Below are positions 5,929 through 23,140 of a stretch of DNA of 64,000 bases, piece by piece. The DNA comes from Desulfomonilia bacterium (GTDB taxonomy: Bacteria > Desulfobacterota > Desulfomonilia > UBA1062): assembly GCA_050014195.1 (NCBI GenBank), contig JBEKDT010000015.1:64953-128952 (forward strand). The letters are read 5' to 3'. The position numbers and the translations under genes are program-made. The stretch's first letter is position 1, and the number at the start of each line of letters is the position of its first letter. Under the pieces are notes generated by a model. The model saw only the letters and a list, made by a program, of their open reading frames with translations, ran no database searches and had not been told where the DNA came from.

Positions 5929-6613
5929 TTGGTAATGGGACGAGATCGGCCTTGCTCCGGCCGATCATTGCAAAGAGCTGTTTGCCGTTGACGAGCTTGA
6001 TGGGGTTGCCTTTGGAAAAATCGATCGCCTCCTGGGTAAAGATGCCTGAGGTAATAACGATTCCTCCCGAGGCCTTCTCGTCGTAAACGACTCCGAGCAG
6101 TTCGTGGACAATGACGACGTCCACGCTCTCCATCTTCCAGTGCTTGCACTGGACAAAGATGGTCTCGCCGTTCTTTTTCAGGACAAGGTCCACTCCCTTG
6201 TATGCCCCGCCGCCTCCGGTCTCAATGACGGTGTAGCCTCTTCTTCTGTATGCATCGCCCACGATCCGCTCGAAATCCCGCCAGCTCAGTGCCCGGAGTG
6301 TTTCCCAATTCTTCCGGCTCTTGAAAAGAACGATCCTCTTTTTGCGGATGAAAACTGAATTCAAGAAAAAGAGGCCTGCCGTTACGAGAAAAAAGAACAA
6401 GGCCGAGTTGGCAAATGTCGGGCCTGATTGCGCCAGGCTTCTCAAAAAGATATCATGAGGAATGCCGTTGGGACTTGGTGCTGCATGGTAATTACCCCAC
6501 ATTGCCGGGAATGCATACTTCAATAATCCATAGCTGAGGACTGCAAGAATAACGCTGACCCACCATAATGCCTCAATCAGGTCATCAGCAAGTGAGGTGA
6601 TTTTTCTTGCCAT
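5750..6613 (-). CDS. Membrane-anchored Mrr-like restriction endonuclease with degenerate C-terminal topoisomerase-type Zn ribbon
   Basis: Two N-terminal hydrophobic helices; LSWRDFE..GVDLVL..VQCKHW..GIVITSGIFTQEA Mrr_cat pattern; CPWSG/YGCSTYP tail. Confidence 0.8.
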   Translation of the reverse strand: MARKITSLADDLIEALWWVSVILAVLSYGLLKYAFPAMWGNYHAAPSPNGIPHDIFLRSLAQSGPTFANSALFFFLVTAGLFFLNSVFIRKKRIVLFKSRKNWETLRALSWRDFERIVGDAYRRRGYTVIETGGGGAYKGVDLVLKKNGETIFVQCKHWKMESVDVVIVHELLGVVYDEKASGGIVITSGIFTQEAIDFSKGNPIKLVNGKQLFAMIGRSKADLVPLPKNKPAAFQTPVRDNPAPLPCPWSGSATILHTAKKGSTPVNKLYGCSTYPERKETGPFET

Positions 6614-6881
6614 GATCTAATCCTTTCCCGGTAGTATGCTTGATTATAGCTTTATCTAAATTTCACCAGATATGTATTAATAACTTCGGATCAGGGAAAA
6701 ACCAGTCAGACCAAGAAAAAATGAGACGGATTTATCGTATCATCGCTGTCCTCAAGCACGCCGGTGGGAATTTCACAGCAGCTCATCATGGAGGAGGTCT
6801 TGTCAAAGGGCCGGAAGGGTTCCATGCCTGCGCCCGGGTAATCGCGCCTGGTTGTGTGGTTTACCTTGAATCAGCTGGTTT

Positions 6882-7052
6882 TTAGTTATTGCCGCACCGC
6901 GCCTGCATGGCAGCGATGTCTTCAGGGGCAAGCCCTTTGCAATCGGAATTAATCCTGTAATACATGATGGAACCCGGGTTTTTGCTGTGCTCGAGACCCT
7001 GGGCATGGCCGAACTCATGGGCCAGCGTACGCACAAGCATGTTGTGGCCGCT
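6882..7052 (-). pseudogene. 3' (catalytic) part of a matrixin/M10 metzincin metalloprotease gene, separated from its 5' part by the integrated element
   Basis: Manual translation: SGHNMLVRTLAHEFGHAQGLEHSKNPGSIMYY...RCGNN*; HExxHxxGxxH plus SIM Met-turn. Not in the ORF track. Confidence 0.9.
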
Positions 7053-7088
7053 TAAATGTTAAATCTTCTTATATACTCCCTTTTATAG
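7051..7088. repeat. Left attachment junction (core CT + element arm TAAATGTTAAATCTTCTT)
   Basis: Arm 7053-7070 matches the reverse complement of 20637-20654 at 15/18 positions; a tcccttt block recurs further in. Confidence 0.85.
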
Positions 7089-7246
7089 TCACTGGCAAAA
7101 TCTCTGCATCCCATAGATCATCAATATCGTAATAGTATCATAAACTTGGAACCCACTTTGACAAATTGATGTAAAATATATTTTAAGCTTTGGTGTAATG
7201 AAATTTATTTTATAATGAAGATAAAAAATATTTTGGAGGAACATCA

Positions 7247-7480
7247 ATGAATACCAAAGCCATACATCTATCTCACATAAATGTGAATTCCTGGCAGCGT
7301 TTCAAATCGTGCGCAGCTATAAAAAATATGGCTATTAACGATCTAGCGAACGTGATGATTGAGGAATTCGTGGATGATTTCGAGGAAAAACTCTTTCGAG
7401 AAGCCTATCACAAGAAGCTTGCCGACCCCACTACCGATCTCAGTAAACCTATAACAGTCAAACTCACGAGGACGAAGTAA
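7247..7480 (+). CDS. Putative ribbon-helix-helix DNA-binding protein
   Basis: GGAGGA RBS; short beta-like KAIHLSHI followed by amphipathic helices WQRFKSCAAIKNMAINDLANVMIEEFV. Confidence 0.55.
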   Translation: MNTKAIHLSHINVNSWQRFKSCAAIKNMAINDLANVMIEEFVDDFEEKLFREAYHKKLADPTTDLSKPITVKLTRTK

Positions 7481-7481
7481 T

Positions 7482-7700
7482 ATGAAAAACATCAGCGAGT
7501 GTGAGAGTTTCGAGGAATGGGCAATGTCGTTCAGTGATGATGAATTCAAGGAATTCGTCGCTGACAAATTTGGTGAACTTTCGATGGATCTGCGGAATAG
7601 AGATTTTAACATTGATCTCGTCTTACCAATCGTCGAATCAATAAAACAGGCTGTTTTTATACGTTATCAGTCGAAAGATCCGACAATCACAAATCATTAA
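7482..7700 (+). CDS. Small acidic hypothetical protein
   Basis: Starts 1 nt after the previous stop. Confidence 0.55.
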   Translation: MKNISECESFEEWAMSFSDDEFKEFVADKFGELSMDLRNRDFNIDLVLPIVESIKQAVFIRYQSKDPTITNH

Positions 7701-7924
7701 AAACACAATGAACATCCCAGGCCTGTATAAACCCCTATGTTTGTCAAATAAACATCACCTGGGACATCTCAGGAAGGAAAGCACTCATTGTAGAAAGGAA
7801 CCGCATTCTTGCGGATTCTATAGAACAGGTGGGATAGGGTCGCTCCCGACAAGAACGGTAAACTCCTTGGACCGTTCTTCCCACTTTTTATCATTCCATG
7901 GAGAACATGCACCGAGGAGGCATA

Positions 7925-8506
7925 ATGGAACGGGTTTCACGACGAATCTATCATAATGACCCTAAATTCAAGCCCAAGACTATCAAAGGTAAGACCAGAT
8001 GGCAGCATGACAATAGCAAATGGCCCCTCAATTTCGGGTGGATGGAGAAGGACAAAAGTATCTGGCGCAGACTCAATAATCCCAAGGATCGGAGTTTCCA
8101 TCACATGATTACAATCCTACAACACTTATGGGAGAAAAGGCTGGATCTGTTCGAGAGTAAATTTATTGCTGAACGTATAAACGCTGGTTTGTACAATACG
8201 CATAAATACGATGATGAGGGAAAGGAACGGAGATGGCCCTTTGTGATGTGTGCTCCACTTGATTATGATTATTTAGAAGCCCGAGACCTGGATCAAAGAA
8301 AGATCAGCTATTGTCTCAATGCACTCGTGAAGTGTGGCTTCTTACGAAGTTTCCGTCGGATAGGTCGCAATGGTCCAGTGAACTATGCAATCGGCTATTA
8401 CATAGTGACATCACACGCTCCTTATGGCCGTGCATATCCTTTTTTGAAGAGTAACCCAGCGTGTCAAAAAGCACTGATTAATTTCAAATTCAGGGAGAAG
8501 ATGTAG
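7925..8506 (+). CDS. Putative winged-helix replication initiator
   Basis: GAGGAGG RBS before ATG 7925; C-terminal QRKISYCLNALVKCGFLRSFRRIG..NYAIG resembles wHTH; iteron-like repeats follow immediately. Confidence 0.45.
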   Translation: MERVSRRIYHNDPKFKPKTIKGKTRWQHDNSKWPLNFGWMEKDKSIWRRLNNPKDRSFHHMITILQHLWEKRLDLFESKFIAERINAGLYNTHKYDDEGKERRWPFVMCAPLDYDYLEARDLDQRKISYCLNALVKCGFLRSFRRIGRNGPVNYAIGYYIVTSHAPYGRAYPFLKSNPACQKALINFKFREKM

Positions 8507-8517
8507 TGATTTTGAAA

Positions 8518-8578
8518 TGTAAAAAGATCTACCCATGGTTTGTAAAAAGATCTAGCCATGGGGCATGGATAGATCTTT
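8518..8578. repeat. Iteron-like repeats (candidate origin or packaging site)
   Basis: TGTAAAAAGATCTA(C/G)CCATGG at 8518-8538 and 8541-8561; inverted partial copy CATGGATAGATCTTT at 8564-8578; AT-rich tract follows. Confidence 0.7.
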
Positions 8579-9299
8579 ATCATATTTGATGGTTGGTTGA
8601 TTAATGTTGAATAACAATATGTTACACGATAAATTGAAAAAATCAATTGTGGCACATATTATACCTATTTTTAGGTATCCCTTATATAGTACCAATAGGT
8701 TCTTCTTCACTTCGTTCAGAAGAACATTGAGCAAACTTCGTTTGCTCTATCTCCCTCTTCTCTTTTTCAATGGAAGGAATGGAAAGACTATCCCATTCAG
8801 ATTGAAAGAGTTTGTTTTTCCCCATTAGGGGAATTTTAGTCGGGAGCCTAAGTTTTGGAGGCTCCATATGAAATTGAAGGTTTCAAAGGTTGCCAGAGTG
8901 TTTCTCAGTATCCATTTGGCAAGTGACCTATTCGGGTCCAGTGCCAGGGGATTTCCCATCTACCAAGAAGCACATGATTCATTGAAGATCAATCCAAGTA
9001 CCCTCGCCACTGTAAGATGGGTGGATGATCGGGAGCTACTTACATCACTCAAATATTGGAGGCGTGATGGGTATGTGTATGGGTTGTTGCTGAACCGATT
9101 GGTTACGGGAGACCTCCCATGTGCTGGGTATGAAGGCAGTCGGGAGCCATATGGTGATTTTTGAGGATTAATCCGGGCTTACCAAGTCTAAAGTCTTAAG
9201 TTATACTTTAGACTTTGGCACAAGAAGGCATAAAAAACGAGGAATAAACTAATCATTTGAAATGTAATAAATAAATACAACGGGTTATGAGGTAATTGA

Positions 9300-11111
9300 A
9301 TGACACTTACACGAACCAGATTCCCAATCAAAGAGGATAAAGCACCAGACATCGACCCTACCATTGACCCTGAAACTGACATCGATCAGGAACATAAAAC
9401 CAACATACCCACTACCAAACAGAGAGGGTTCCCTAAAGGATCTCCAAGGCCTCCGAGGATAGCCGAGCGCTGGCAGGAGAACACGGAAGAAGCCTTCTAT
9501 GCCTGGTTGGAAGATGTCAAGCCCATGATCCTTACACGATCAGGTAGGTATGAGGTCTTCCGACCCACACCTGAGCAGAAGACAATCATCAAGGCCGTCT
9601 TCACACAAGAAAATGGAAAGCTTAAGCACTCCATGATCCTGTCCATTCAGCCTCGTAGACACGGCAAGAGTACAGTCTTTGCAATCATAGCACTCTTCTT
9701 TTTCTGTTCCAGGAAGAACTACACCATTTCTTTGCTAGGTAATAACGATACGCACACCGATAGGACAATGCTCAGGAAGCTCAAGTCCATCATCCAGCAT
9801 ACCGGAGGCTTAAGAATTCGGATAGACCCCGACAGGGACATCCTTCATGACTGTATACGCCAGGAAACCTGGGGAAACCAAATAATCAAGCAAGGCGTTT
9901 CAAGTGCATCCGCATTCGGAGAGCGTATAAATCTGCTATGGGTATCGGACCTCCATGCAGCCCCTGACATCTCGATATTCAACGCAGTCCAGGCCTCACT
10001 CTTAGACTCGGAAGATTCCCTGATCCTCATAGACAGCAATGCAGATTCCATAGGCGGTCCCGTTCATGGCTTGGAAGAAGAAGCCATGTCCGACCCTTCA
10101 ATATTTTGCAGACACCTGGAATACAAGGATTTTGAAGAGTTTACAGAGAAAGCCCCTGCATGGATTGACCGATCCAGAGCCAAGCGCATACAAAGAACAG
10201 CCTTGGAAGCAGACTACCAGCGCGACATCCTCGGCAAACGCTCATCAGTAGCCAATGCTCTCTTCCCCGAAATCCTTATCAGGGCAGCTATGGACAGCTA
10301 TAAAATCCCCGTTCTTGACATCAAAGACCTCGCCCATGGCAGACCCTACAAGGTCGGTGCTGGTTTAGACCGAGCAAAGCTGTTGTCTCCGATAATGGGA
10401 GGAGATCACAGCGTCCTGACGACCGTTGCCAAGGTCGCCCAGACATCAGGTGAGCCCGAATATTTCATCCTCGACATGCACGATTTTACCTTGAACCTCA
10501 GCAAGGCAATAAAGGCCAGGATCATAGAGAATCACAAGAGATACACCCTCACCAATGTTGTCTTAGAATCATTCGAGACAGTAGACCTTCTCCCATATCT
10601 GGCAGAAATGCAAATTTCCCATGAGTCAATCCATGCAACAGACGTCGCACAGAACACGATATTCCCTGAGTTCTACCGCATAGTGAAGGACGGTAGGCTC
10701 CATATCCCGGCAAACTGCACCCAGCTTGCCGATGAAATGCGCTCATTCATTTATACCGCAAAGAAACATGGACAATACAGCTTTGGGCATTCATCAAGCC
10801 AGTTCCATGACGATGCCGTGTACGCCACTGCATGGGCGATCTTCTCTCTCAGGAATGAGATTCTTAGCATGTATCAGCTTGATCTACTCGATTGTCAGAA
10901 TCAATCCTCGCTCAAACGGGCTCTATGTTTCTTATTTGGTGGTTCAAAAGTCATGCACTGCTCTGAAGGCTGTGCTGCATTCCATTCAGTCCAGGACATG
11001 CACCAAGACTTCCTGGCATTCAATCAGTTGGACAGCGAGCTTAACTTGGTTGAGTTTTTCAAGGCATACGTCCAGACCAAAGACACCATCAAACAATATC
11101 AGGTGCTGTAA
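9300..11111 (+). CDS. terL: Terminase large subunit
   Basis: PTPEQ adenine-binding motif, QPRRHGKST Walker A, GLDRA and FHDDAVYA nuclease acidic motifs; upstream of portal and capsid genes. Confidence 0.85.
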   Translation: MTLTRTRFPIKEDKAPDIDPTIDPETDIDQEHKTNIPTTKQRGFPKGSPRPPRIAERWQENTEEAFYAWLEDVKPMILTRSGRYEVFRPTPEQKTIIKAVFTQENGKLKHSMILSIQPRRHGKSTVFAIIALFFFCSRKNYTISLLGNNDTHTDRTMLRKLKSIIQHTGGLRIRIDPDRDILHDCIRQETWGNQIIKQGVSSASAFGERINLLWVSDLHAAPDISIFNAVQASLLDSEDSLILIDSNADSIGGPVHGLEEEAMSDPSIFCRHLEYKDFEEFTEKAPAWIDRSRAKRIQRTALEADYQRDILGKRSSVANALFPEILIRAAMDSYKIPVLDIKDLAHGRPYKVGAGLDRAKLLSPIMGGDHSVLTTVAKVAQTSGEPEYFILDMHDFTLNLSKAIKARIIENHKRYTLTNVVLESFETVDLLPYLAEMQISHESIHATDVAQNTIFPEFYRIVKDGRLHIPANCTQLADEMRSFIYTAKKHGQYSFGHSSSQFHDDAVYATAWAIFSLRNEILSMYQLDLLDCQNQSSLKRALCFLFGGSKVMHCSEGCAAFHSVQDMHQDFLAFNQLDSELNLVEFFKAYVQTKDTIKQYQVL

Positions 11112-11317
11112 TGTACGAGAAGACAGAAGATTTATGGCTCCCATTAATAGGAGATGGTCAGATAGAATTTAGATGTGCAGCCTGCCGGAGATATTTTGGG
11201 AGAGGTTTATTCCCACCAGGATCTTTCCTGCTTCATAAATGTGGGAAGTGTGACCGGATAAACAGGCTTGGAGCCCATGGCGCTTCATTGGCATCACTCG
11301 GGGTAATAAAAAAATAA
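11111..11317 (+). CDS. Mu Com-like zinc-finger protein
   Basis: EFRCAACRRYFGRG...HKCGKCDRIN; TAATG overlap with terL. Confidence 0.65.
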   Translation: MYEKTEDLWLPLIGDGQIEFRCAACRRYFGRGLFPPGSFLLHKCGKCDRINRLGAHGASLASLGVIKK

Positions 11318-11332
11318 GGAAGGTAACAAGTA

Positions 11333-11533
11333 ATGGCAACAGGAACAGTAAAATGGTTCAACAGAGAAAAAGGGTATGGGTTTATCACAGTAGACGGTGG
11401 AAGTGATGTCTTTGTGCATTGGAAAAACATCTTAGGAGATGGGTTCAAGATGCTGGTTGAAGGCGATTCCGTAAGATTCGACATCGAGGAAGGCCCGAAG
11501 GGAGATCAGGCAGTTAACGTGAGGGAAGAATAA
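11333..11533 (+). CDS. Cold-shock protein (CspA family)
   Basis: [16 protein letters not shown] (RNP1), DVFVHW (RNP2), [10 protein letters not shown]. Confidence 0.95.
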
Positions 11534-12051
11534 TGATCAAGCAAAATGGCAAATGGACGAGGATTCCACCCGAGCTTGAGCGGGCTTTTTACGCCCACCA
11601 TGAGGCCGGTCATGTGGTGATGCATTACCTCAAAAAAGTGAGATTTGCTTATGTGACTATCAATGGAACCATGTCTGAACGTCCAGATGTTAAATCTTTC
11701 GTCTGCGTTAATCCAATATCCTTTGAGAAAAGGAAAAAGGTACTGGAAAGGGAATTTCTTCTTGATATGGCCGGGACAATTGCCGAAAAAATTTATCTCA
11801 AGTCCAAAGGCTATGAGGTGTGTCCCGGGTATACAAAAAGTGACTTGCGGTTAATCATGAACAAGGCTGAAAAGTATTTTGGGATTACAGAACCAGATGT
11901 AATTGACAAAAAACTAAAAGAACTTGAGCCCGAGTGCAAAAATCTCATTGAACAGAACTGTAAAGCTATTACAGCCATTGTGGAAGCCCTACTGAAAGAA
12001 GAGACGATAGGATACAAAAAGGCCAGAGAGATCATCAAAAGAATAAAATAA
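11533..12051 (+). CDS. Stand-alone M41 (FtsH-type) zinc peptidase domain protein
   Basis: AHHEAGH, MAGTIAEKI, SDL and AIVEALLKEETI match the FtsH protease domain; no AAA or TM part. Confidence 0.7.
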   Translation: MIKQNGKWTRIPPELERAFYAHHEAGHVVMHYLKKVRFAYVTINGTMSERPDVKSFVCVNPISFEKRKKVLEREFLLDMAGTIAEKIYLKSKGYEVCPGYTKSDLRLIMNKAEKYFGITEPDVIDKKLKELEPECKNLIEQNCKAITAIVEALLKEETIGYKKAREIIKRIK

Positions 12052-12077
12052 GTTTTCGTCTTGTTATAGAAAAAAAC

Positions 12078-12176
12078 TATAATAACATATATCACGAAAA
12101 GCCCCCTTTTCATGCATAGAGCCCCATGGAGGCCAGCCGACGGCCAAACCATTGGGGCTCTTTTGCTTTTAGGAGG
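12078..12176 (+). promoter_or_regulatory. -10 box plus structured 5' leader of the portal gene
   Basis: TATAAT 12078-12083; stem AGAGCCCCA (12118-12126)/TGGGGCTCT (12153-12161) followed by T-runs; AGGAGG at 12171-12176. Confidence 0.5.
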
Positions 12177-12183
12177 TTAGTGA

Positions 12184-13530
12184 ATGTTTTGGAACAGCGT
12201 TGTTGACGATGTAGCATTTCGAACATGGGGATTCAGTGCGACTGACCCCGTCTTGATGCGGAAGCAGGAACACCTCCGCAGGATTGAGTATTACCACGAC
12301 TTACAGTTAGATTTCCTGCGGATGCAGCTTACCCGACATTTCGCAGATGCAAGCAAGATCACGCCGATGTTTATCAATGTGACCCGAAAAGTCATAAACA
12401 ACATTGCCAGGGTTTACATTTATCCGGTCACGAGGCAGATCGTCAAAGGCTCAACAACCGACACCGAACTTTTCCAAGCAATTGCCCTCACATCGTCTCT
12501 TGGAAGAAAACTCAAGCTGGCAAGTCGATATTGCAAGCTCCTTAAAACCCTTCTGCTCAGGCCAATATGGCGTGATGGTCACATGGACTTGGACCTGATA
12601 ACGGGTGACAAAACCGATGTCACTTATGGTGATGTTCCGGAGCAGTTACTATCGGTCAAAATAACGATCTATCCTGACTCAGGAAAGCTCGAAGACCTAA
12701 CATATAGCCTTTGGACTGCCCAAGAGTTCCAGACGCTTGACTACAGAAATAAAGTGATTGCAAGCCAGCCAAATCCTTACGGCGTTTTGCCATTCGTCCC
12801 GATCTGGGATGGTGTTCCAGTTCGAGATTTTTGGATCGATGGCGGTGACGATCTGATCACAGCCCAGGATGCCGTTAACGAGAGGTTGACCGATTTATGC
12901 TATGTTTTACGCCTTCAAGGATACGGTCAGCCTTATACAATCGGTGTACCACAAAGCACCGACTTTTATTTGGGACCAGGTGCAGTAACCCAACTGCCAC
13001 AGGGATGTAGCATGGGCTTTGCCTCAACTAACGCCCCAATCAGCGCGATCATCGAAGCAATAAAATTTCTCATAGGTCAGACAGCTGTCTCGTATGGCCT
13101 GTCCGCGCATATTCTAATTGACGAACCGGAACGATCTTCCGGAATTAGCAAGATAATTTCTAGCCAGGAGCTAGATGAAGCCCGGCAGGACGAGGTCGAG
13201 CTTTTCATGGATTACGAGCATAACTTATTCAATATGTTCAAGGTTCTATGGAACCATCACAATCCTGGTAAACAGTTTTCCAAGAATGCAGAATTAAAAG
13301 TATCATTTGAAGATCCTAAACCAGAAGTTGATCCTCTGGTCCAAGCGAACGCATGGACTGCATTGATGGGCATGGGCGTCATATCGCCTGTGGACATCGT
13401 CATGGCTCGCAATCCTGACATAACGAGTAGACAAGATGCCCTCGCATATTTGCTGACTGTAGAATCCGAGATGAGAACCCTCAATGAGGGATATCCCATA
13501 ACCCCAAATCCAGGAAGGACGGTACCCTAA
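12184..13530 (+). CDS. Phage portal protein (SPP1 gp6-like)
   Basis: 448 aa; INVTRKVINNIA, QPNPYGVLPFVP, SSGIS, LKVSFEDPKP; position between terL and scaffold. Confidence 0.85.
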   Translation: MFWNSVVDDVAFRTWGFSATDPVLMRKQEHLRRIEYYHDLQLDFLRMQLTRHFADASKITPMFINVTRKVINNIARVYIYPVTRQIVKGSTTDTELFQAIALTSSLGRKLKLASRYCKLLKTLLLRPIWRDGHMDLDLITGDKTDVTYGDVPEQLLSVKITIYPDSGKLEDLTYSLWTAQEFQTLDYRNKVIASQPNPYGVLPFVPIWDGVPVRDFWIDGGDDLITAQDAVNERLTDLCYVLRLQGYGQPYTIGVPQSTDFYLGPGAVTQLPQGCSMGFASTNAPISAIIEAIKFLIGQTAVSYGLSAHILIDEPERSSGISKIISSQELDEARQDEVELFMDYEHNLFNMFKVLWNHHNPGKQFSKNAELKVSFEDPKPEVDPLVQANAWTALMGMGVISPVDIVMARNPDITSRQDALAYLLTVESEMRTLNEGYPITPNPGRTVP

Positions 13531-13925
13531 TGGAAAAAGAAGCAATCGTCAACGCAGACGGAAAAAGCGATGAAACAAAGGAAAAAGCCCAGGCCCAGGG
13601 CACGGACAATGCCACCGAAAAAGGCAGCAAGATGATTCCCAAGGAACGATTCGATCAGGTCAACCAGCAGAAAAAAGAGGCTCTTGAAGCCCTGCAATCC
13701 ATTGTTGATGAACTCATCGAGGACATCCCGGAAGAGTTTAAAGACCTCGTCCCTGACCTATCACCAGCAGTTAAAATAATGTGGATCAGGAACGCGCAGA
13801 AAAAGGGAATCTTTGGGAAGACATCTCCTGATGGGCTAGACACAAAGAGATCCGGGAATACGGCCCCCAGAAATCTTGAAGGTCTTAGTACACACGATTT
13901 AAGGAAACTTGGTTACAAAAACTAA
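13530..13925 (+). CDS. Capsid scaffolding protein
   Basis: Charged N-terminus, MIPKERFDQVN motif seen in phage scaffolds, directly upstream of MCP. Confidence 0.75.
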   Translation: MEKEAIVNADGKSDETKEKAQAQGTDNATEKGSKMIPKERFDQVNQQKKEALEALQSIVDELIEDIPEEFKDLVPDLSPAVKIMWIRNAQKKGIFGKTSPDGLDTKRSGNTAPRNLEGLSTHDLRKLGYKN

Positions 13926-14004
13926 AAAATAAATCCATTGTCTCAACATAGTTAGAGGCCATTGAAGAGCCCTTGTTTCTGACGTGGAAACAGGAGGAAA
14001 ATCA

Positions 14005-14925
14005 ATGGCTTTAACATTGTTAGATCAAGCTAAACTTTGCGTTGATCCGCTTCAAAAAGGCATTATCGAAGAGTACCCGCGAACTTCTGAGGTGCTTCAA
14101 CGACTACCCTTTATGTCAGTTTCAAGTGATACTTACAGATACAACAGGGAAGAAATTTTGCCAGGTGTCGGTTTTCGAGGCGTGAACGAGAGCTATAATG
14201 AAAGCACTGGCATACTCAATCCCCAGATCGAGACACTCATGATCTCAGGTGGGTTTAGCGATGTTGACCGTGCTCTAATTAAAACACAGGGAAATGTAAA
14301 CGATCTTCGGGCAATTTATGACGGACTAAAGGCCAAGGCATTAAGCCTGTTCTGGACTAAAGAATTCTTTAAGGGTGACACTACAGTCAACCCACGAGGA
14401 TTCGATGGTCTTGAAAAACGTCTGACTGGTCCGCAGCTCCTCGATATGGGCTCAAGTGCAGGTGGTGACACCTTGACCCTTGCCATGCTCGACGAGCTGA
14501 TCGACTGCTGCCCATGGGGTGTTGATTGTTTGTTTATGAACAGGACCATGAGGAGAAAGGTCAATGCCTTGATTCGTGCTTCCGGTGCAGCAATCGAGAC
14601 GGTCTCTGATGCCTTCGGTCAACAGATACCTTCATATGCATCCATACCAATCGGGATAATTTGGATCGATGAAAAAGGTAATGAAATCCTTGATTTCAAT
14701 GAACCTGCGCCTGGTGATGGTGCTACTGTTACCACCTCAATTTATGCAGTTAAATTTGGTGCAGGGCAGTACGTTTCAGGATTGCAGGTCAGTCCTATAG
14801 AAGTGCTCGATCTCGGCTTGTACGCTGGCGGTATCAAGTTCAGAACGCTGATCGAGTGGATCAGTGGCATGGCTGTCTTTAACTCAAGGGCAGCAGCGCG
14901 TCTACGTGGAATTAAAAACGCATAA
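14005..14925 (+). CDS. Major capsid protein (HK97 fold, no delta domain)
   Basis: AGGAGG RBS 13992-13997; MALTLLDQAKL..LPF..YRYNREEILPGVGFRGVNE..GFDGL..AAARLRGI resembles widespread phage MCPs. Confidence 0.88.
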   Translation: MALTLLDQAKLCVDPLQKGIIEEYPRTSEVLQRLPFMSVSSDTYRYNREEILPGVGFRGVNESYNESTGILNPQIETLMISGGFSDVDRALIKTQGNVNDLRAIYDGLKAKALSLFWTKEFFKGDTTVNPRGFDGLEKRLTGPQLLDMGSSAGGDTLTLAMLDELIDCCPWGVDCLFMNRTMRRKVNALIRASGAAIETVSDAFGQQIPSYASIPIGIIWIDEKGNEILDFNEPAPGDGATVTTSIYAVKFGAGQYVSGLQVSPIEVLDLGLYAGGIKFRTLIEWISGMAVFNSRAAARLRGIKNA

Positions 14926-15047
14926 TAGTGTCTCACTCCCAGGAGTGAGTGTTTTACCCGACCGGTCTGCCACTCAGACCTGTGTCATATTCTTAAATGG
15001 GGAGCAAGGATCGGCCTTGCTCCCCAGCCTCCAAGAAAGGATGAAGC

Positions 15048-15239
15048 ATGGAACGTAAAAGAGGTAGGCCCAAGAAAAGTATAAAACTGATGGAAAATAG
15101 GGTTGGGTTCTTCATTGAGATTTACAAGGATCTTCATCAGCAACTTAAGACTGAGTCCGACAGGCAAGGTGTGCCCATGTGCAAGTTTGTAGAAATAGCA
15201 ATCAAAGAATTACTTAAGTCATGTACAATGACATCTTAA
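15048..15239 (+). CDS. Putative ribbon-helix-helix protein with N-terminal AT-hook
   Basis: RKRGRPKK, then VGFFIEIYKDLHQQLKTESDRQGVPMCKFVEIAI. Confidence 0.6.
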   Translation: MERKRGRPKKSIKLMENRVGFFIEIYKDLHQQLKTESDRQGVPMCKFVEIAIKELLKSCTMTS

Positions 15240-16228
15240 AATTCCAGCATCGTGTAGATCAACGAAGCAATGCTCTTGCCTCGGATATGATCCGAGAGCT
15301 TGATGCTGCAAGGGTTGAAATCCTTGGAAAACTGGCTGATCTGCAAGATCGTTACATTCGAGGCGACTACAACACCGAGACATTTCAACGTAAACAGGCT
15401 TTCTTACTGCATCAGAGGAACGAGGTTGAAGATACCCTTGATAGTGTTTTCAGCAATATTGGAGATCAACTCCAATCAGCCTCAGAAGACGTTATCGCAG
15501 CGACAACCGTACACACGATCAGTACAATGAACAATAGCACTGGCCTTGACATCCAGTTCTTCCACTTGGACCCTGAACTTGTCCAGGCATGGTTCCAGAC
15601 CGGCCTTATCGAAGGCTCGACCCTCACAGACTGGCTCAATAAGCTAAAACAGTCCACAGCCGACAGAATAATTAAGGCACAAAGACAATCCCTCATTCAG
15701 GGCGAGAGTGTGGGGGGAATGGTCAAACGATTACGCCAGGAGGGCGTTGAGGGAAGTTATCGAGACCTCACTGGCCTTGCCCGAACCAGTATGCTTTCGG
15801 CTGCAAACTATGCTCGTGAACAAACCGTTACTCAGGGCTTCGGGGATGTGCTCACGGGCTGGCAATATTGCGCCACGCTAGATTCGAGGACGTGTTTGGT
15901 GTGTGGGGATTTGGATGGAACCACATATGGCCCTACAGATCAAAAAGAAGATTTACCCTTACATTGGTGCTGCCGATGTTGCTACATTCCACTAGTAGGT
16001 GGTGAGGGTGCTAACACTGATGATCGTCCAGCCGTTACAGATGAAAGAGTTGAGAGGTTTGACGGCACATACAACGAGTGGATGCAATCGCAATTAGAAT
16101 CCGACCCCGGCTTCGTCAAGGATGTTTTAGGCCCTGGAAGGTTTGATTTATTCAAAGATGGGAAAATAAGCCTTTCAAATATGGTTACAAATGGCGAAAT
16201 AACAACCCTTGCAGACCTCAAAGGATAG
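15221..16228 (+). CDS. Minor head morphogenesis protein (SPP1 gp7/Mu gpF family)
   Basis: LARTS, WQYCATLDSRTCLVCGDLDG, PLHWCCRC, TYNEWM, VLGPGRFDLF. Confidence 0.9.
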   Translation: MYNDILKFQHRVDQRSNALASDMIRELDAARVEILGKLADLQDRYIRGDYNTETFQRKQAFLLHQRNEVEDTLDSVFSNIGDQLQSASEDVIAATTVHTISTMNNSTGLDIQFFHLDPELVQAWFQTGLIEGSTLTDWLNKLKQSTADRIIKAQRQSLIQGESVGGMVKRLRQEGVEGSYRDLTGLARTSMLSAANYAREQTVTQGFGDVLTGWQYCATLDSRTCLVCGDLDGTTYGPTDQKEDLPLHWCCRCCYIPLVGGEGANTDDRPAVTDERVERFDGTYNEWMQSQLESDPGFVKDVLGPGRFDLFKDGKISLSNMVTNGEITTLADLKG

Positions 16229-16254
16229 GGGTTTTCAGAGGTCGGGGCTAACCT

Positions 16255-16482
16255 TTATCCTTCTATAGCCACTAAAACCGCTCCATTAACATATGAAGCA
16301 TAGCGATGATTTAAGTAAGTTACAATTTCATTATCCCATTTTAACTCATCCCCTTGATTATCTCTTGGCTTCCTATCTTTTATAGTCACCTCCATTGAAC
16401 TATATACTCCAAACTGAACGCTAAAACCTTTGGCCTTCCCGTCTCTCATCGTTCCACTAATCATTATAAACTTATATTCCAT
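16255..16482 (-). CDS. Hypothetical protein
   Basis: AAGGAG RBS before MEYKFIM; overlaps the upstream ORF. Confidence 0.5.
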   Translation of the reverse strand: MEYKFIMISGTMRDGKAKGFSVQFGVYSSMEVTIKDRKPRDNQGDELKWDNEIVTYLNHRYASYVNGAVLVAIEG

Positions 16483-16762
16483 TGCTTGACTCTCCTTTTT
16501 CTGGCTCCCCATATAGGGATACCCAGACTGCTCTTTTCATTTCTTTGGTTATGTATTTACCAACTATCGTTCTACAATCTTCAGCAAGTGCAATAAGCTC
16601 CTTTTTTGCTTTCTTTATGCGTTTGTCGGTCCAATTAGGGGTAACATCTAGAAGGTCACACCATTCAATATGACTGAGCATGTCATCCAAAACACATAAC
16701 TGGGTTAACAATTCGCCAATGTCTATACTGCCTGCAACCTTACCATTTTTTAACTTACCCAT
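16472..16762 (-). CDS. Hypothetical protein
   Basis: GAGGTG RBS, 96 aa. Confidence 0.55.
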   Translation of the reverse strand: MGKLKNGKVAGSIDIGELLTQLCVLDDMLSHIEWCDLLDVTPNWTDKRIKKAKKELIALAEDCRTIVGKYITKEMKRAVWVSLYGEPEKGESSNGI

Positions 16763-16995
16763 TTTTCACCTCTCTCGTTCATCATGCTTACATTATATCA
16801 TATTTTCAGATGAAACACGGTTTTCGGATAGGGTTTCAACAGGTCAGGGCAAAACCTTATCTCCTATATCTTTCTTTAATAATACAATCAATTTATATCT
16901 TTCACGAAATGTGAAAGATAGTCTTGTTTTTTAAATAAATAAAAATTATTATGAATATATCTTGTTATATCAAAAGCCTATGAAAGGAGAGAATT

Positions 16996-17349
16996 ATGGT
17001 TGCAAAAAAGGGACAAGTTAAGAAGTCAGGCAATGGCGATACCATTGAAAAGATCAATCGCAAACCAGTCCAGAAAAAGGCGGCTATCAAGGACGATCAA
17101 ACAGCAGCCCCCAAAGAAATCAAAACAGATGTTTTCGGTAACAGAGTCAATACCCAGTCCAGCCTGATCAATGAACTCCTCCTGAAAGGCACGAAGAAGG
17201 ACGTCATTGTCAAGGCTATCATGGACAAGTTCAACAGTCCTGAGAAGACGGCTACCGGCAAACTTCGGGGGCACATCAAACACCTCAAGAAAGAAGGACA
17301 TTCTGTAACCGAGAAGGATGACACCTATACCATAAAGATAAAAGGCTAG
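16996..17349 (+). CDS. Lysine-rich putative DNA-binding protein (C-terminal wHTH-like)
   Basis: AAGGAG RBS; very basic; SLINELLLKG..KLRGHIKHLKKEGHSVTEKDDTYTI. Confidence 0.6.
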   Translation: MVAKKGQVKKSGNGDTIEKINRKPVQKKAAIKDDQTAAPKEIKTDVFGNRVNTQSSLINELLLKGTKKDVIVKAIMDKFNSPEKTATGKLRGHIKHLKKEGHSVTEKDDTYTIKIKG

Positions 17350-17357
17350 GGGGCGAT

Positions 17358-17552
17358 ATGGATCTGATTGAACGTCAGGCAAAAGCGGATCAAGTCAAAA
17401 ACAGGGTGTTCAGTATTCTTACTGTGGCCTTAGCTCAGGTCAGGAATACAGTTGAGGAGTCCGGTCTTGAGATGAGAGACTGTGGCATCAGTGTTGAGCG
17501 ATACCAGGCCGGAGATCATTCAATATTCGTCGATCTCAGGATGAAGATATAA
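17358..17552 (+). CDS. Hypothetical protein
   Basis: AGGGGG RBS; followed by a terminator. Confidence 0.55.
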   Translation: MDLIERQAKADQVKNRVFSILTVALAQVRNTVEESGLEMRDCGISVERYQAGDHSIFVDLRMKI

Positions 17553-17585
17553 AAATATAACCCGCACCTACGAAAGACCTCCCTT

Positions 17586-17614
17586 GGCCCCGGTGCAATG
17601 CCGGGGCCTTTTTT
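17586..17614 (+). terminator. Rho-independent terminator
   Basis: GGCCCCGG-loop-CCGGGGCC followed by TTTTTT. Confidence 0.85.
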
Positions 17615-17666
17615 ATGCCCCTCGATGAATTTGGGGAGTCCTTTTAAGGCCCCGCCGCAACTGTGT

Positions 17667-17897
17667 CTAATCCTTCAATGGAATCCAGGCCCAACGGTGA
17701 AAGCCTTCTCTAAGCTTATATTTATAACAATCACCATTCGAATAAGTTGATGTCAGGATTCCTTGATCAGCATTGTAATCCCAGGTAAAAATATCACCGT
17801 ATGTTCCTCGGACCTGACACTTAAAACTTTTCTTTAAATCTATACTCAAAAAATCCAACTCGTCCTCGTCCCAAATTTCCTTATCTCCCAGATCCAT
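17667..17897 (-). CDS. Hypothetical protein
   Basis: AGGAG RBS before MDLGDKEIW. Confidence 0.5.
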   Translation of the reverse strand: MDLGDKEIWDEDELDFLSIDLKKSFKCQVRGTYGDIFTWDYNADQGILTSTYSNGDCYKYKLREGFHRWAWIPLKD

Positions 17898-18074
17898 TGT
17901 GATTCTCCTATAAATTTTTATTCGACGAATAAACAATCGTACAGACTATCGTAGCACACTTTTTTCAAAACCTTGTTCAGTCTGGAAAAATAGTTTTTAT
18001 GAGTAATTATCTTGTTTTATTTATATATTTATTTTATGATATTCTTAAAATAAATAAGGCAGGAGGGCCAAGTT

Positions 18075-18317
18075 ATGGCGGAAAAATTGAGGGCTTTTAC
18101 CCTTTACATCGAAGATATAAAGCTCCGTAAGATGAAGGCGATAGCAGCCTACAAGGATAAAAAGACAAGGGAAATTGTCAACGAGATGTTCGATCTCTAC
18201 CTGGCAAAGTTCGCTGAAACTGAGCAAGGCAAGCAGCTTATGGCATCCTTTGAAGAAGAACACAAAGGGGAAATCAAACTTACTCGCCTGAAGAAACCGG
18301 AATCACAAAAACCATGA
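18075..18317 (+). CDS. Putative ribbon-helix-helix protein upstream of the recombinases
   Basis: AGGAGG RBS; RAFTLYIEDIKLRKMKAIAAYKDKKTREIVNEMFDLYL. Confidence 0.6.
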   Translation: MAEKLRAFTLYIEDIKLRKMKAIAAYKDKKTREIVNEMFDLYLAKFAETEQGKQLMASFEEEHKGEIKLTRLKKPESQKP

Positions 18318-18334
18318 TATAATAAGGGGGAAAT

Positions 18335-19042
18335 ATGGCTGATGTGTACATGGTCACTAGAACATCGACAAATCACCAGGACCTTTCCATTGAGGCCCAG
18401 GATGCAGCCCTGAGAAAATGGGCTATGAATCATGGGCACATTGTGAAGGGTATTTCCACAGAGGACGGGGTGAGTGGTGGACGGGACATTAAGAAGCGTC
18501 ATATTATGAAGATCCTCAACAAGATGGGCAAAGGTGACATCCTGGCTACGTATTCATGGAGTAGGCTGACGAGAAGCCTTTCAGACCTGATGGAAATTGC
18601 CAAGATCCTGGAAAAGAAGGGGTCACATTTGGTGAGTCTCGTAGAGCAGATTGATACGAGCACCCCACAGGGCAGACTCTTCTATCACATCATGGGGTCT
18701 ATGCATCAGTTTGAAAGAGAGCTGATTGCTCAGCGAGTTAGGTTTGGACTGGACCACAAACGGTCAAAATCTGAGAAGTTGGGTGGCATGATTCCATTCG
18801 GCTATGATGTGAAGGTGGTTCCCGGTATGAATCGCAAGGGTGAGCCGACCAAGATCAAGAAGCTGGTCCCAAACGAGAAAGAGCATTTTATCATAGAGAA
18901 GATACTTACATTGCGACGGGAGTCATGCACTTTGAAGAATATTGCCAATACACTGAATGCCGAGGGCATCCCGACCAAGAATGGCAGTGTATGGCTTTCG
19001 GGCCAGATAAATAGGATAGTTCGACGGGAGGCAAGGGCATGA
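18335..19042 (+). CDS. Serine recombinase (resolvase catalytic domain + short recombinase DNA-binding domain)
   Basis: TRTST catalytic Ser, EDGVSG, SRLTRS, IDTSTPQGRL, FERELIAQR, PFGY, IANTLNAEG. Confidence 0.92.
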   Translation: MADVYMVTRTSTNHQDLSIEAQDAALRKWAMNHGHIVKGISTEDGVSGGRDIKKRHIMKILNKMGKGDILATYSWSRLTRSLSDLMEIAKILEKKGSHLVSLVEQIDTSTPQGRLFYHIMGSMHQFERELIAQRVRFGLDHKRSKSEKLGGMIPFGYDVKVVPGMNRKGEPTKIKKLVPNEKEHFIIEKILTLRRESCTLKNIANTLNAEGIPTKNGSVWLSGQINRIVRREARA

Positions 19043-20658
19043 CTACGGATGGATTGAAACCACCTCTACGTTTTGGGGTGCTGTGCCGTGTTAGCACCGA
19101 ACCTCAGGAAAAGCGTGGGGAATCCCTGAACAATCAAAAGAAGCAGGTCGAGTCTGCCGTGAAATATCTTGGTGGGATAATTACCATGCGATATGAGGGG
19201 CAAGAGCATAGTACACCAGGATCTGAACGAGAGATGCTTGACAGGGCTCTCGTAGATTCTGGCAAAGGTCTCTTCGATGCATTTATGGTCCCTGATCTCA
19301 CAAGATGGACCAGGGACAATGAAAAGAATAAGCAGAGTATCAGAATTTTTAGGATGAACAAGATACGCTTTTTTGTAGGAACGATGGAGTTCAATTTAAA
19401 CAAGTCTCATGATCGAATGATGATTGGAATGACGACAGAGGTCGGAGAAGGCACCGCTGGCTATATGGCAGAGAGGAGCAAGGAATGTCGTCATGATCTA
19501 TTTAGTAAAGGAGTGCCATGTGTCGGTCAGAAACCCTATGGACGAAAGTATGACAAGAAGACAGGCACATGGAGTATCGACGAAGAAAAGAAGGAAATGA
19601 TTAAGATAGCAGTCAAGAAGTTTCTATCAAAGATAGGCCGTGAGAAAATAGGCCGTGAGAAAATTGCAGAGGAAATGGGAATTTCTCCAAGCACATTGTA
19701 TATCATCTTCAAAAAATTCCTTGGTGATACATGGACCACTAAAATGGGGACAATGAAAATCCCTCCCCTGATTGAGGATCAGAAAATCATTAAAGCAGTC
19801 CATGAGAGACTTGAAAACAACAAGACCATCAACCATGATCCACGTGGGAAACATGCATATCTGTTATCCAGCATCATATTTTGCGCTGATTGCGGACTCA
19901 CCCTGAATGGCGTTCCCGATCAGATGAACTATGGAAAGACTGAGGCCCAATATAAATATAGGTACAGACACCCAAAGAACAAAAGCATCAAGCGTTTTTG
20001 CCCAAATTATAAAGCATGGGACATCAGGGCAGAGGACATAGAAGAAGCTGTGATAATCCAAATGCTATATCTTTTTGGACATAGAGAAGCATTAGAGAAG
20101 TCCATATTAAGAACTGTCCCCAATAATGAAAAATTGCAAGAACTGTCTGCCACCAAGGCAAGGTATAATAAGGAGTTCGATAATATTGAAAAAGAAATAC
20201 AGACCCTCATTGAAAAAACCGTCAAAGGAATATTTACGGATGAAGAAGCAAGACCCACTATGGAAAAATATCGTGAACGCAAGAGATTCCTCAAACTAGA
20301 GATGGATAATCTCGATACTCAGATTGGACAATCACCAACCAAAAAAGAGCTTAGTGCACTTGCCAAAAGAGTTCACCAACAGGCTTGGAAGGCACTTTAT
20401 CAAAATCCTGCAAAAATGACATGGACTCAGAAACGGGAACTTTTGTTAAAGGTATTTTTAGGGAAGCATGTCTCTGGCGATAAACCAGGTATCTATGTCA
20501 AAAAAGTTGATGATGTCGTGCATTATTCTATCAAAGGACTAATCAATCAGGAGATTGAGGGGTGTCTTCCAATGAGCGATTGGGAGAGGGAAGAATTGCT
20601 AGATAATCCTATAAAAGCAAAAGGGAATAATATAACAAGTAAATTTAACAATTACTGA
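19039..20658 (+). CDS. Large serine recombinase (integrase); stop codon formed at the right att junction
   Basis: CRVST catalytic Ser, DLTRWTR, PYG, YLLSSIIFCADCG Zn ribbon, long coiled coil; ATGA overlap with the upstream recombinase. Confidence 0.92.
   Translation: MTTDGLKPPLRFGVLCRVSTEPQEKRGESLNNQKKQVESAVKYLGGIITMRYEGQEHSTPGSEREMLDRALVDSGKGLFDAFMVPDLTRWTRDNEKNKQSIRIFRMNKIRFFVGTMEFNLNKSHDRMMIGMTTEVGEGTAGYMAERSKECRHDLFSKGVPCVGQKPYGRKYDKKTGTWSIDEEKKEMIKIAVKKFLSKIGREKIGREKIAEEMGISPSTLYIIFKKFLGDTWTTKMGTMKIPPLIEDQKIIKAVHERLENNKTINHDPRGKHAYLLSSIIFCADCGLTLNGVPDQMNYGKTEAQYKYRYRHPKNKSIKRFCPNYKAWDIRAEDIEEAVIIQMLYLFGHREALEKSILRTVPNNEKLQELSATKARYNKEFDNIEKEIQTLIEKTVKGIFTDEEARPTMEKYRERKRFLKLEMDNLDTQIGQSPTKKELSALAKRVHQQAWKALYQNPAKMTWTQKRELLLKVFLGKHVSGDKPGIYVKKVDDVVHYSIKGLINQEIEGCLPMSDWEREELLDNPIKAKGNNITSKFNNY
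20619..20656. repeat. Right attachment junction (arm AAGTAAATTTAACAATTA + core CT)
   Basis: Inverted counterpart of 7053-7070. Confidence 0.85.
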
Positions 20659-21412
20659 ATTGAAAAATGGTTATGCTTTCCCTGAACATGGTCCTCTCAT
20701 ACAGACCGGAAGCGAACTTCCCGGTCAGTTCGTTGCATGTGTTTTTGTAGCTCATCACCTGCGAATTGTGGTTTGATGCTATGGAACCGATGTCTGCAAC
20801 AATACCGTTCAGGTCGTCCACCGTCTTCTGCAGGTCCGCTTGTTGGGCCTGGAGGCCTTCCAACTCGGCATCGAGGGACTGCTTCTGCCCGGAAAGACTT
20901 TGAAAGGTTCCCCTGGAGACGGTGTCATCCTTATTCGCTGCATCAAGCTCAGCCCTGTAGGCATTCAGGTGCCTCATGTATGCATCATATTGCGCTGAAT
21001 AGGCGGCATTCTTCCGCTCCACCTCGGCTTTAAGATCATTGTACAGGGACATGAGCTCATCATACGATGCCTTTGCATCGTCTATGCCTCTGCTGATGTT
21101 TTTCAGATTGTCCGTTACTGCCTGCCGGTTGTCATACACCAGGTCTATCTCGATGGAGCCGGCCGGGTCTTCCTGGAAGATCTTGTGCCCGATGGCCTTC
21201 TCCCACATGGCGACCGCCTCATGAACGGCATCCGTAACCTCCTGCCTGCTCAATCCGAAGCGCTCATCGATGGAGTTGATGCGGTAGGTCATGATCGTGT
21301 TGAATGCCTCTGATCTGCCCTGGAAGATGCAGACAAAGAGGATACAGATGATGATTTGTGGCAGATACCTGATGGGGCTTAAGGGGTGGCTCGTGTATGC
21401 ATTTTTCATCAT
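20645..21412 (-). pseudogene. 5' part of the matrixin-family metalloprotease (signal/TM segment, N-terminal metzincin strands, coiled coil), truncated by the element
   Basis: TYRINSIDERFGLSRQEV..AVAMWEKAIG..IEIDLVYDNRQ, coiled coil, ends ITIFQFS|NC* at the att core; joins in frame to 6882-7050. Confidence 0.88.
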
Positions 21413-21462
21413 GGTGGTACAGATATTTTTCGGGTGATATTCTAAAAAGCTTAACAGGCTAC

Positions 21463-21702
21463 TTGTTCTCACCACGAAGGACTTAGCGCAGCATAGCCGC
21501 AACCAAAATGAGCTTGGGATTTGAGCAGACATAGAAGTCCTTCACCACGAAGAGCACTTTAGGACACGAAGAAAGGAAACCTTTTGAAATAGTGGAACGG
21601 TTCAAAGAACCCACGATTGTCTGTTATGCATTTCTTAGATCATCTTCGTGCTCTTCGTGTCCTTCGTGGTGAAATTTCCCTGTGTGTGCTCTTCAACGAT
21701 CC
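21463..21702. repeat. Palindromic MITE-like repeat, copy A (CACCACGAAG...CTTCGTGGTG arms)
   Basis: Shares both flanks with 31697-31861; carries an extra nested segment at about 21483-21540. Confidence 0.75.
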
Positions 21703-21744
21703 GGGGAATTCCAGGGACACCCTACTTAATTCTTGCATTCCAGA

Positions 21745-22056: not shown

Positions 22057-22077
22057 GGGATGTCTCCTTTTTCTTTT

Positions 22078-22107: not shown

Positions 22108-22133
22108 GGTCAAATCTATTTTACGATCAACAA

Positions 22134-23130: not shown

Positions 23131-23140
23131 GCCTTCCTCC

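Follow-up and report, generated by a model that had tools for sequence, protein, structure and literature searches.

What becomes of a protease gene when a phage-derived element settles inside it, at a site from which its departure would restore the gene? The question is raised by a 64,000-nucleotide stretch of DNA from a Desulfomonilia bacterium (contig JBEKDT010000015.1, positions 64,953 to 128,952 of the forward strand), here called the window, in which an insert of 13,604 bp interrupts a minus-strand matrixin (M10) gene at codon 253. A first-pass annotation of the window had claimed that a serine-recombinase element splits this gene, that excision at a common dinucleotide would restore the frame exactly, and that the locus represents either a recent insertion or a switch controlling an exported protease. 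The split and the exact restoration are borne out by the gapless orthologue alignments, the Pfam and PHROG matches of the recombinase, two empty sites in related genomes and an empty-site contig, all described below. As to the meaning of the arrangement, we consider it probable that it arose by the ordinary integration, by a large serine recombinase (LSR), of a phage-derived, capsid-only element into a coding gene, and that the insertion is polymorphic in nature. The features are collected in Table 1.

The minus-strand open reading frame (ORF) that begins with the ATG at 21412 reads ...ITIFQF at the right junction, followed by AGT-AAT-TGT-TAA (S-N-C-stop, 20645-20656), just as the annotation had read it. 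At the left junction, the minus strand at 7052 reads AG/C GGC CAC AAC ATG CTT, and the protein continues as S-GHNMLVRTLAHEFGHAQGLEHSKNPGSIMYY...CGNN to the stop at 6882-6884. The frame of this C-terminal part, S-GHNMLVRTLAHEFGHAQGLEH...SIMYY...CGNN-stop, contains both the full HExxHxxGxxH motif and the Met-turn that had been assigned to it, and by itself it exceeds the Pfam cut-off for PF00413 Matrixin (E = 5.8e-10, 39.7 bits versus a cut-off of 24). When the two parts were aligned with an intact orthologue, P0004, the N-terminal part (P0001, 253 aa) matched residues 1-253 with 91% identity and the C-terminal part (P0002, 56 aa) matched residues 253-308 with 55 of 56 residues identical, in both cases with 0 gaps. 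The overlap of the two alignments on P0004 is a single Ser codon, which contains the shared dinucleotide.

A search of 5.8 billion proteins with the N-terminal part gave 15 matches, including three full-size ones (308 aa, 89% identity; 315 aa, 91%; 308 aa, 84%), and the intact orthologues as a whole span 308-345 aa. One of them carries the source name 'MAG: matrixin family metalloprotease [Desulfomonilia bacterium]', so that the closest named orthologue comes from a Desulfomonilia metagenome-assembled genome (MAG). Through the insertion site, the DNA of G003 and that of G004, both genomes of this genus, is continuous at 92-97% identity; these are empty sites. Thus, orthologues are collinear across the junction, both in protein (P0004) and in DNA.

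Neither gene part is decayed, and both are without stops. The ratio of nonsynonymous to synonymous differences per site (pN/pS) of the N-terminal part is 0.46 versus G003 and 0.33 versus G004, and that of the C-terminal part is 0.41 and 0.12, respectively. These values are consistent with purifying selection, but they mostly record the time before the insertion and cannot separate the possible readings. Hence, of the annotation's suggestion that selection on the two halves would be informative, the lack of decay stands, but not the power to discriminate. The own genome also has a matrixin paralogue, 38% identical, on another contig. Among the listed titles on 'matrixin' together with 'prophage', none deals with a split matrixin gene. 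Note that, compared with the window, the orthologue in G003 shows a 1-nt indel near codon 231, which is a frameshift or an assembly error, and that in one database protein, P0007 (232 aa), roughly the last 10 residues ahead of the stop no longer follow the family. The matrixin gene may be broken by other routes in relatives.

Assembled contigs from four peat metagenome runs (X2, X7, X13, and X14) were compared with the window over positions 6000-22500. One X14 contig passes from 7050 straight to 20655, with 13,604 bases left out and 2 letters in common at the joint, and so contains the reconstituted attB by which the annotation had proposed to recognize excision. The depth of this empty-site contig is 9.8, versus about 31 for the element. 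The other X14 contigs break exactly at the junctions (6383-7052, 7023-20684, and 20655-21492, with overlaps at 7023-7052 and 20655-20684), a pattern that would be produced by a short alternative path between identical flanks. Furthermore, the shorter side of the empty-site contig, 28 letters, together with the 2 common letters makes 30, which is k-1 for the assembly word size, which we take to be k = 31 for these contigs. This coincidence suggests that the empty site belongs to the same or a near-identical strain, and not to a relative like G003. The X2 and X13 runs gave single Logan contigs spanning 6146-21492, and X7 gave pieces across both junctions. The empty attB is therefore present in one of the four runs, while the occupied form dominates in all four, and at least one sample contains lysogens side by side with cells or sibling strains whose gene is intact.

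The occupied form is very uniform. The LSR scan found five public contigs, two in IMG/VR and three in JGI metagenomes; each is in the integrated state and shows 100% identity to the window, and when the long pieces of the four runs are included, all are identical or have at most one differing letter. The identity of all five occupied contigs compared by BLAST, with the empty sites of the two closest genomes, fits the recent insertion that the annotation had offered as one alternative. The stretch 19000-22500, which includes attR, is represented by 84-99% of its sampled words in 24 listed peat and wetland runs released between 2017 and 2025, none of which is on record as RNA; these runs are not independent, because they possibly belong to one campaign and some possibly are the source of the assembly. 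The attP junction of an excised circle was seen in none of the four runs or five public contigs, and no collection scan was aimed at the attP or attB junction string.

The ends of the element have the features expected of LSR recombination. Its G+C content is about 0.40-0.47, versus about 0.50-0.60 for the flanks. There is no target duplication beyond the 2-bp core, and no base has been gained or lost. When attP was rebuilt by computed joining of the element ends, its arms matched at 11 of 12 positions beside the core and farther out with small indels, while the arms of attB match at 15 of 30 positions. The rebuilt attP is thus an imperfect palindrome about the core, as expected of a serine-integrase attP. 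The attB, attP, attL, and attR sequences of this divergent LSR are defined to the base, and sets of this kind are useful for integrase tool collections.

What does the insertion do to the protein? An AlphaFold model of the intact orthologue P0004 was obtained with a 15-row alignment (mean pLDDT 82.5). In the model, an N-terminal hydrophobic helix (14-30; signal or anchor) is followed by a strand, a helix, and two strands (41-91), a coiled-coil hairpin of two helices (95-229), two more strands (236-249), the active-site helix (255-269), and a C-terminal helix (295-306). The hairpin, of about 135 residues, is set inside the catalytic domain, after the third strand and before the last two. The best matches of the model in the PDB are the catalytic domains of the matrix metalloproteinases (MMPs) MMP-11, MMP-8, and MMP-1 (E = 2.9e-4, target TM scores 0.64-0.69), and these alignments reach across both sides of the hairpin. 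The multiple alignment of the orthologues shows that H264, E265, H268, G271, and H274 are nearly invariant and that M282 and Y283 are conserved. Codon 253 is two residues ahead of the zinc-binding helix in the model. The N-terminal part encodes the hydrophobic helix (signal or anchor), the opening strands and helix of the protease fold, and the hairpin; the helix of the active site (HEFGHAQGLEH), the Met-turn (SIMYY), and the final helix are encoded by the C-terminal part. Because the split falls before the zinc-binding helix, the product in a lysogen cannot be catalytic. The model thus agrees with the annotation's view of the integrated state as a non-catalytic coiled-coil fragment: only a 255-aa fragment, ending before the active-site helix, can be made, and the gene is off.

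The hairpin is not peculiar to this gene. At E ≤ 0.001, the family includes 1808 cluster representatives, and at E ≤ 1e-30, it includes 205; most are 300-320 aa long and match in one stretch across 41-306. The hairpin-bearing architecture, as judged from these matches, defines a sizeable uncharacterised family. The interrupted matrixin resembles the MMPs (MEROPS M10A) in the HExxHxxGxxH motif, the Met-turn, the PF00413 match, and the MMP-like fold, but differs in having the coiled-coil hairpin within the fold and in having neither the cysteine switch of a pro-domain nor a hemopexin domain.

Two recombinase genes lie in tandem at the right end of the element. The LSR has a catalytic domain with the motif CRVSTEPQ (R-x-S-T-x-x-Q), in which S19 and R17 are invariant or nearly so in an alignment of 20 sequences (A2), a helix-turn-helix, and a zinc ribbon (PF13408 at residues 275-339); for the 539-aa protein, there was no match to the Pfam 'Recombinase' domain as such. 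A search of the PDB with the single sequence gave no match, whereas the 20-sequence profile matched the catalytic domain of TP901-1 integrase (E = 1.2e-13) and YokA/SprA of SPbeta (E = 2.7e-9, 62-465 on residues 70-504), the latter being the best full-length solved relative. The small recombinase has a catalytic domain and the first half of the 'Recombinase' domain, and its PDB matches are invertases of the Gin/Hin type and the TP901-1 catalytic domain. Its stop codon overlaps the start of the LSR gene (ATGA).

The LSR ORF crosses the crossover site, and its stop codon, TGA, consists of the T of the core and GA from the host (20653-20658). In the excised form, the frame would stay open for 26 more codons into the left end of the element (7053-7130), giving a protein of 565 aa. 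Hence, it is the junction that supplies the stop codon, and the C-terminus of the recombinase depends on the state of integration. A comparable case is phage Mx8, whose int gene is changed at its 3' end upon integration.

The LSR was found in only one of 122 genomes of the class, that of the window itself, and the nearest non-self protein is 42% identical. A scan of genome contigs with the single protein found no close relatives. An alignment-based scan gave 76 genome loci with 28-51% identity in the best segment, from Desulfobacterota, Planctomycetota, Bacteroidales, and others. The proteins of the element were compared with these 76 loci and with six viral loci; without two self contigs, 80 non-self loci remain. 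At none of the 80 does a matrixin gene adjoin the recombinase. On the same strand and less than 1 kb upstream, another catalytic domain of a serine recombinase is present at 10 of the 76 genome loci (L022, L034, L052, L054, L057, L059, L064, L066, L085, and L087) and also at L100. The small and large recombinases may act together, as CcrA and CcrB do.

L100, an IMG/VR contig of 6.6 kb (6660 bp), is the only non-self locus that also shares the scaffold-like protein, capsid, and MuF protein along with both recombinases, with identities of 62, 68, 60, 38 (small recombinase), and 37% (LSR). The recombinase end of L100 borders on a UPF0047 (YjbQ-type) gene of the opposite strand, of which the first 42 codons are left, and, as in the window, the LSR frame continues beyond the start of the host gene fragment. 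A complete UPF0047 gene, a 141-aa frame that covers positions 1-117 of the 117 in the Pfam model, lies between its two recombinase genes (L100:3827-6660); over a stretch of 46 residues it shares 74% identity with the interrupted host gene, and it seems to be a spare of the gene that was broken. The element in the window carries no matrixin copy. The annotation had raised the possibility that related elements target the same codon; the position of L100 in a UPF0047 gene, and the absence of matrixin genes beside the recombinase at the 80 loci, show that they do not.

Table 1. Features of the interrupted matrixin gene and of the element within it (window coordinates)
Feature	Position	Strand	Evidence or remark
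Matrixin C-terminal part, codons 253-308 (stop 6882-6884)	6885-7052	-	55/56 to P0004 residues 253-308; PF00413
Integrated element, 13,604 bp (one core copy counted)	7051-20654	+	Skip in X14 contig; composition
Crossover dinucleotide CT (AG on gene strand), attL	7051-7052	.	Junction comparison, X14 contig
ORF, 202 aa, weak structural likeness to RepA_N winged-helix replication initiators	7898-8506	+	TM 0.37-0.41
Tandem pair of direct repeats, 23 nt each, closely following the 202-aa ORF	8518-8563	.	87% identity; repeat family D10
Terminase large subunit	9300-11111	+	phrog_2 E 1.5e-13; weak Terminase_6N/6C
Small zinc-ribbon-like ORF			After terminase in gene order
Cold-shock domain protein	11333-11533	+	PF00313 E 1.3e-26
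HExxH (HEAGH) protein, 172 aa, like FtsH (M41) peptidase domain	11533-12051	+	PF01434 E 7.3e-8
Portal, SPP1 Gp6-like	12184-13530	+	Feature score 0.98; TM 0.73 to PF05133 cluster; phrog_104 E 0.0044
Acidic helical protein, 131 aa, between portal and capsid	13530-13925	+	phrog_194 E 0.047; 62% homologue in L100
Major capsid protein	13984-14925	+	phrog_212 E 2.1e-76
Arc/omega-like ribbon-helix-helix repressor	15048-15239	+	phrog_3180 E 9.6e-7
Mu F-like head morphogenesis protein	15221-16228	+	PF04233 E 4.8e-11; phrog_241 E 4.8e-45
AT-rich block, small ORFs on both strands (85, 96, 117, 64, 89, 80 aa)	16255-18317	.	No significant family
Small serine recombinase, 235 aa	18335-19042	+	PF00239 E 8.5e-34; PF07508 E 1.5e-5
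LSR, 539 aa	19039-20658	+	PF00239 E 1.9e-11; PF13408 E 1.2e-6; phrog_95 E 4.1e-41
Matrixin N-terminal part, codons 1-253	20654-21412	-	91% to P0004 residues 1-253, gapless
Crossover dinucleotide CT, attR; T is first base of recombinase stop TGA	20655-20656	.	Junction comparison

The family matches in Table 1 indicate a head-only element, with terminase, portal, scaffold-like, capsid, and MuF genes together with regulators and the two recombinases. Throughout the head module, as in the two recombinase genes, the reading frames are open and of full length, and the capsid gene and the LSR gene are each single copy in the genome. The capsid is 50-52% identical to capsid genes of Bacillus and Paenibacillus phages of 50-59 kb. 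The 131-aa protein is probably the scaffold, from its position and the weak match. None of the 21 ORFs searched matches a Pfam or PHROG tail, holin, or lysin family at E ≤ 0.001, and even at E ≤ 0.5, the 14 unnamed ORFs have no tail or lysis match, apart from the 85-aa ORF with E = 0.0064 to a tail profile of 562 positions. Nor were families of head-tail connectors or adaptors, primases, HNH proteins, or prohead proteases detected in the element with Pfam and PHROG, and no small ORF matched any named family that would identify a directionality factor. About 12 small ORFs are without names, all of at most 131 aa besides the 202-aa ORF. The latter has no Pfam or PHROG match, and its likeness to RepA_N is below threshold, so it was left unnamed; the 23-nt repeats after it may be iterons or operators, and the ORF and repeats together may form the replication module of the element. 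The AT-rich block is probably a regulatory region.

The cold-shock and FtsH-peptidase-like genes (11333-12051) occupy an unusual site for cargo, between the terminase and portal genes of the head module. A minus-strand sequence at 7164-7137 that resembles a promoter and is directed outward from the element, toward the C-terminal part of the matrixin gene, was set aside, as such sites are no commoner here than in shuffled sequences. A tRNA-targeting island was ruled out by the lack of any tRNA or Rfam match within 5000-24000.

Our proposal for the locus is as follows. Recombination of the serine-integrase type has joined a palindromic attP, located by the recombinase gene, with attB in codon 253 of the matrixin gene at the CT core. 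The integrated element leaves its host, a peat bacterium, with only a truncated matrixin, the gene being off. The element would still be able to excise, and would most likely act either as a capsid-forming satellite or as a prophage that has lost its tail and lysis genes, with tails supplied by a helper phage. Inactivation of the gene would then be a by-product of target choice, rather than a switch under host control. We favor ordinary integration because of the exact collinear split, the empty relatives, the reconstituted attB, the palindromic arms of attP, the domains of the LSR, and the head genes. Several observations weigh against this proposal. Excision is inferred, and the empty-site contig could stem from a never-infected sibling with identical flanks; the junction of attP is absent from the four runs and the public contigs; and no directionality factor was found among the element ORFs by family matches. 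The depth of the flanks in X14 (29.5-35.7) is not the value of about 41 expected if cured cells at 9.8 were added to the occupied form, and X14 likewise lacks the circle junction expected of retained episomes, so the depths fit neither simple model. The satellite interpretation rests on the finding of no tail genes among the small unnamed ORFs. Furthermore, no head-tail connector was found in the element, and a search of the own genome for a helper prophage with three families only (tape measure, tail sheath, and HK97 capsid) gave none over the cut-off, a result that does not bear on external helpers; we know of no helper phage.

Could the element instead be a developmental or active-lysogeny switch, excised on cue to turn the exported matrixin on and then kept or re-integrated? 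Excision would rebuild the gene exactly, both gene parts are without stops at pN/pS values of 0.12-0.46, and both forms occur in X14, where the empty form has about one-fourth to one-third of the depth of the occupied form. Usual rates of spontaneous curing are far below such a share. The element in X14 (depth 31) is not less deep than its flanks, which is what retention of excised copies by the cell would produce, and the RepA_N-like ORF, weak as its likeness is, and the direct repeats could allow episomal maintenance. However, no run or public contig contains attP, three of the four runs lack the empty form, and the pN/pS values mostly precede the insertion and are silent on later selection. 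The interrupted state is not conserved either: G003 and G004 are empty, the orthologues of 308-345 aa are intact, the occupied contigs are identical, the LSR is confined to one of 122 genomes of the class, and none of the 80 non-self LSR loci adjoins a matrixin gene. In L100, the spare target gene suggests that disruption is a cost to be offset and not a regulatory device. To our knowledge, there is neither terminal differentiation in the host group nor a developmental programme in the window's host. An old, conserved switch is thus disfavored by the single clone, the empty relatives, the different target in L100, and the lack of attP, and we regard a regulated switch as quite unlikely. Still less credence, in our opinion, is due to a composite in which, in an anaerobic peat bacterium, a satellite doubles as a reversible matrixin switch, with frequent excision, RepA-like persistence, re-integration, and a recombinase C-terminus that depends on the state. 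If it were true, excision would occur in about a quarter of the cells in one sample, and this would be the first switch of the active-lysogeny type run by a satellite and the first outside examples of the Firmicutes type.

The opposite possibility is that the element is a fixed, dead remnant that no longer excises, the empty contig coming from uninfected siblings and the matrixin being a pseudogene in this lineage. The lack of attP, of tail and lysis genes, and of a directionality factor would be explained, as would the dominance of the occupied form in all four runs and the presence of the attR stretch in the 24 listed runs from 2017-2025; the 1-nt indel near codon 231 in G003 would mean that the gene is possibly dispensable in the genus. 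A dead element, however, would not be expected to have the head-module ORFs and both recombinase genes open and full length, nor intact, palindromic att arms, nor two gene parts free of decay. The retention of the small-recombinase/LSR pair in L100 at 38 and 37% identity likewise argues for function. We therefore think a dead remnant unlikely. That the element and the gene halves were joined only in this assembly, by an error of assembly or binning, can be dismissed, since five independent public contigs and contigs of all four runs cover the junctions, those of X2 and X13 as single contigs over 6146-21492. Ordinary integration of an element that would still be mobile remains our preferred explanation. 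The occupied and empty alleles of the protease occur together in a natural peat community, so the question of a switch can be addressed with existing raw reads.

How does the locus compare with known systems? A prophage in a gene that excision restores is a textbook mechanism. What is new here is the host lineage, the target gene, the capsid-only element with its tandem pair of small and large recombinases, and the stop codon made at the junction. Among the classical cases, SPbeta has a size of about 134 kb, the skin element (SpoIVCA) splits sigK, and phage phiSa3 uses a tyrosine integrase; phage-inducible chromosomal islands that form capsids (cfPICIs) are about 10-15 kb. In Listeria, the comK prophage phi10403S defines 'active lysogeny', in which reversible excision without lysis turns the host gene on. 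At our locus, by comparison, there is no evidence of an excised circle or of re-integration, and the element has no detected tail or lysis genes.

A close parallel in mechanism is SPbeta in spsM of Bacillus subtilis, which, in the parts of PMC5499854 that describe it, uses the SprA integrase and the SprB directionality factor. In both, an LSR puts a phage element into a coding gene and attL × attR recombination rebuilds the frame, but SPbeta, as characterized there, is a complete phage whose excision is tied to sporulation through SprB. The element in the window, in contrast, has 13.6 kb, head genes only, two recombinase genes, and no SprB-like factor that we could find. The skin element in sigK and gin in gerE (the latter in the pertinent portion of PMC5595907) are similar in that a reduced or non-phage element with a serine recombinase splits a gene that excision rebuilds. 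They differ in being kept vertically and excised specifically in the mother cell of spore formers, whereas the occupied state here is one clone and the closest relatives are empty. With phiSa3 in the beta-toxin gene hlb of Staphylococcus aureus, the locus shares a split gene for a secreted enzyme and the occurrence of occupied and restored forms, as outlined in PMC6597384; that phage is complete, its host is different, and its regulation by cues is examined in the same outline.

In gene content, the element resembles the cfPICIs, which, in the relevant sections of PMC10085698, have their own terminase large subunit, portal, and capsid; like them, it has no tail or holin genes that we could find, and SatelliteFinder, as presented in those sections, treats tail and holin genes as forbidden components for cfPICIs. 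It differs from the cfPICIs of those sections in having serine recombinases rather than a PICI-type integrase, with no primase-replicase, HNH protein, prohead protease, or adaptor/connector detected by Pfam or PHROG, in a capsid related to those of Bacillus and Paenibacillus siphophages, and in a host phylum outside those named there. Since the connector/adaptor and the PICI-type left module of that description were not found, the element is not a cfPICI member; the likeness would be in how it works and not in family membership. It is a capsid-only, satellite-like element in a Desulfomonilia-related lineage, from a phylum for which the same sections of PMC10085698 report no satellites.

Of the genes next to the matrixin locus, the annotation had described the neighboring defence genes as decayed. 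This is true of hsdR (type I restriction subunit, 3-2801), which is broken by a single in-frame TAG at 900-902, so that two ORFs share its SWI2_SNF2 domain, the break falling between positions 130 and 136 of 221. It is not true of Mrr (5750-6613), Fic (4278-5444), and a YgjP-like gene, which have full-length Pfam matches. Just upstream of the matrixin start, at 21480-21700, there is a dispersed repeat of about 190-220 nt, which occurs also at 31703-31832. It has no Rfam match, recurs in the own genome with 65 matches that are 74-100% identical, and reaches about tenfold depth in all four runs. This repeat resembles a miniature inverted-repeat transposable element (MITE) or a repetitive extragenic palindromic (REP) sequence.

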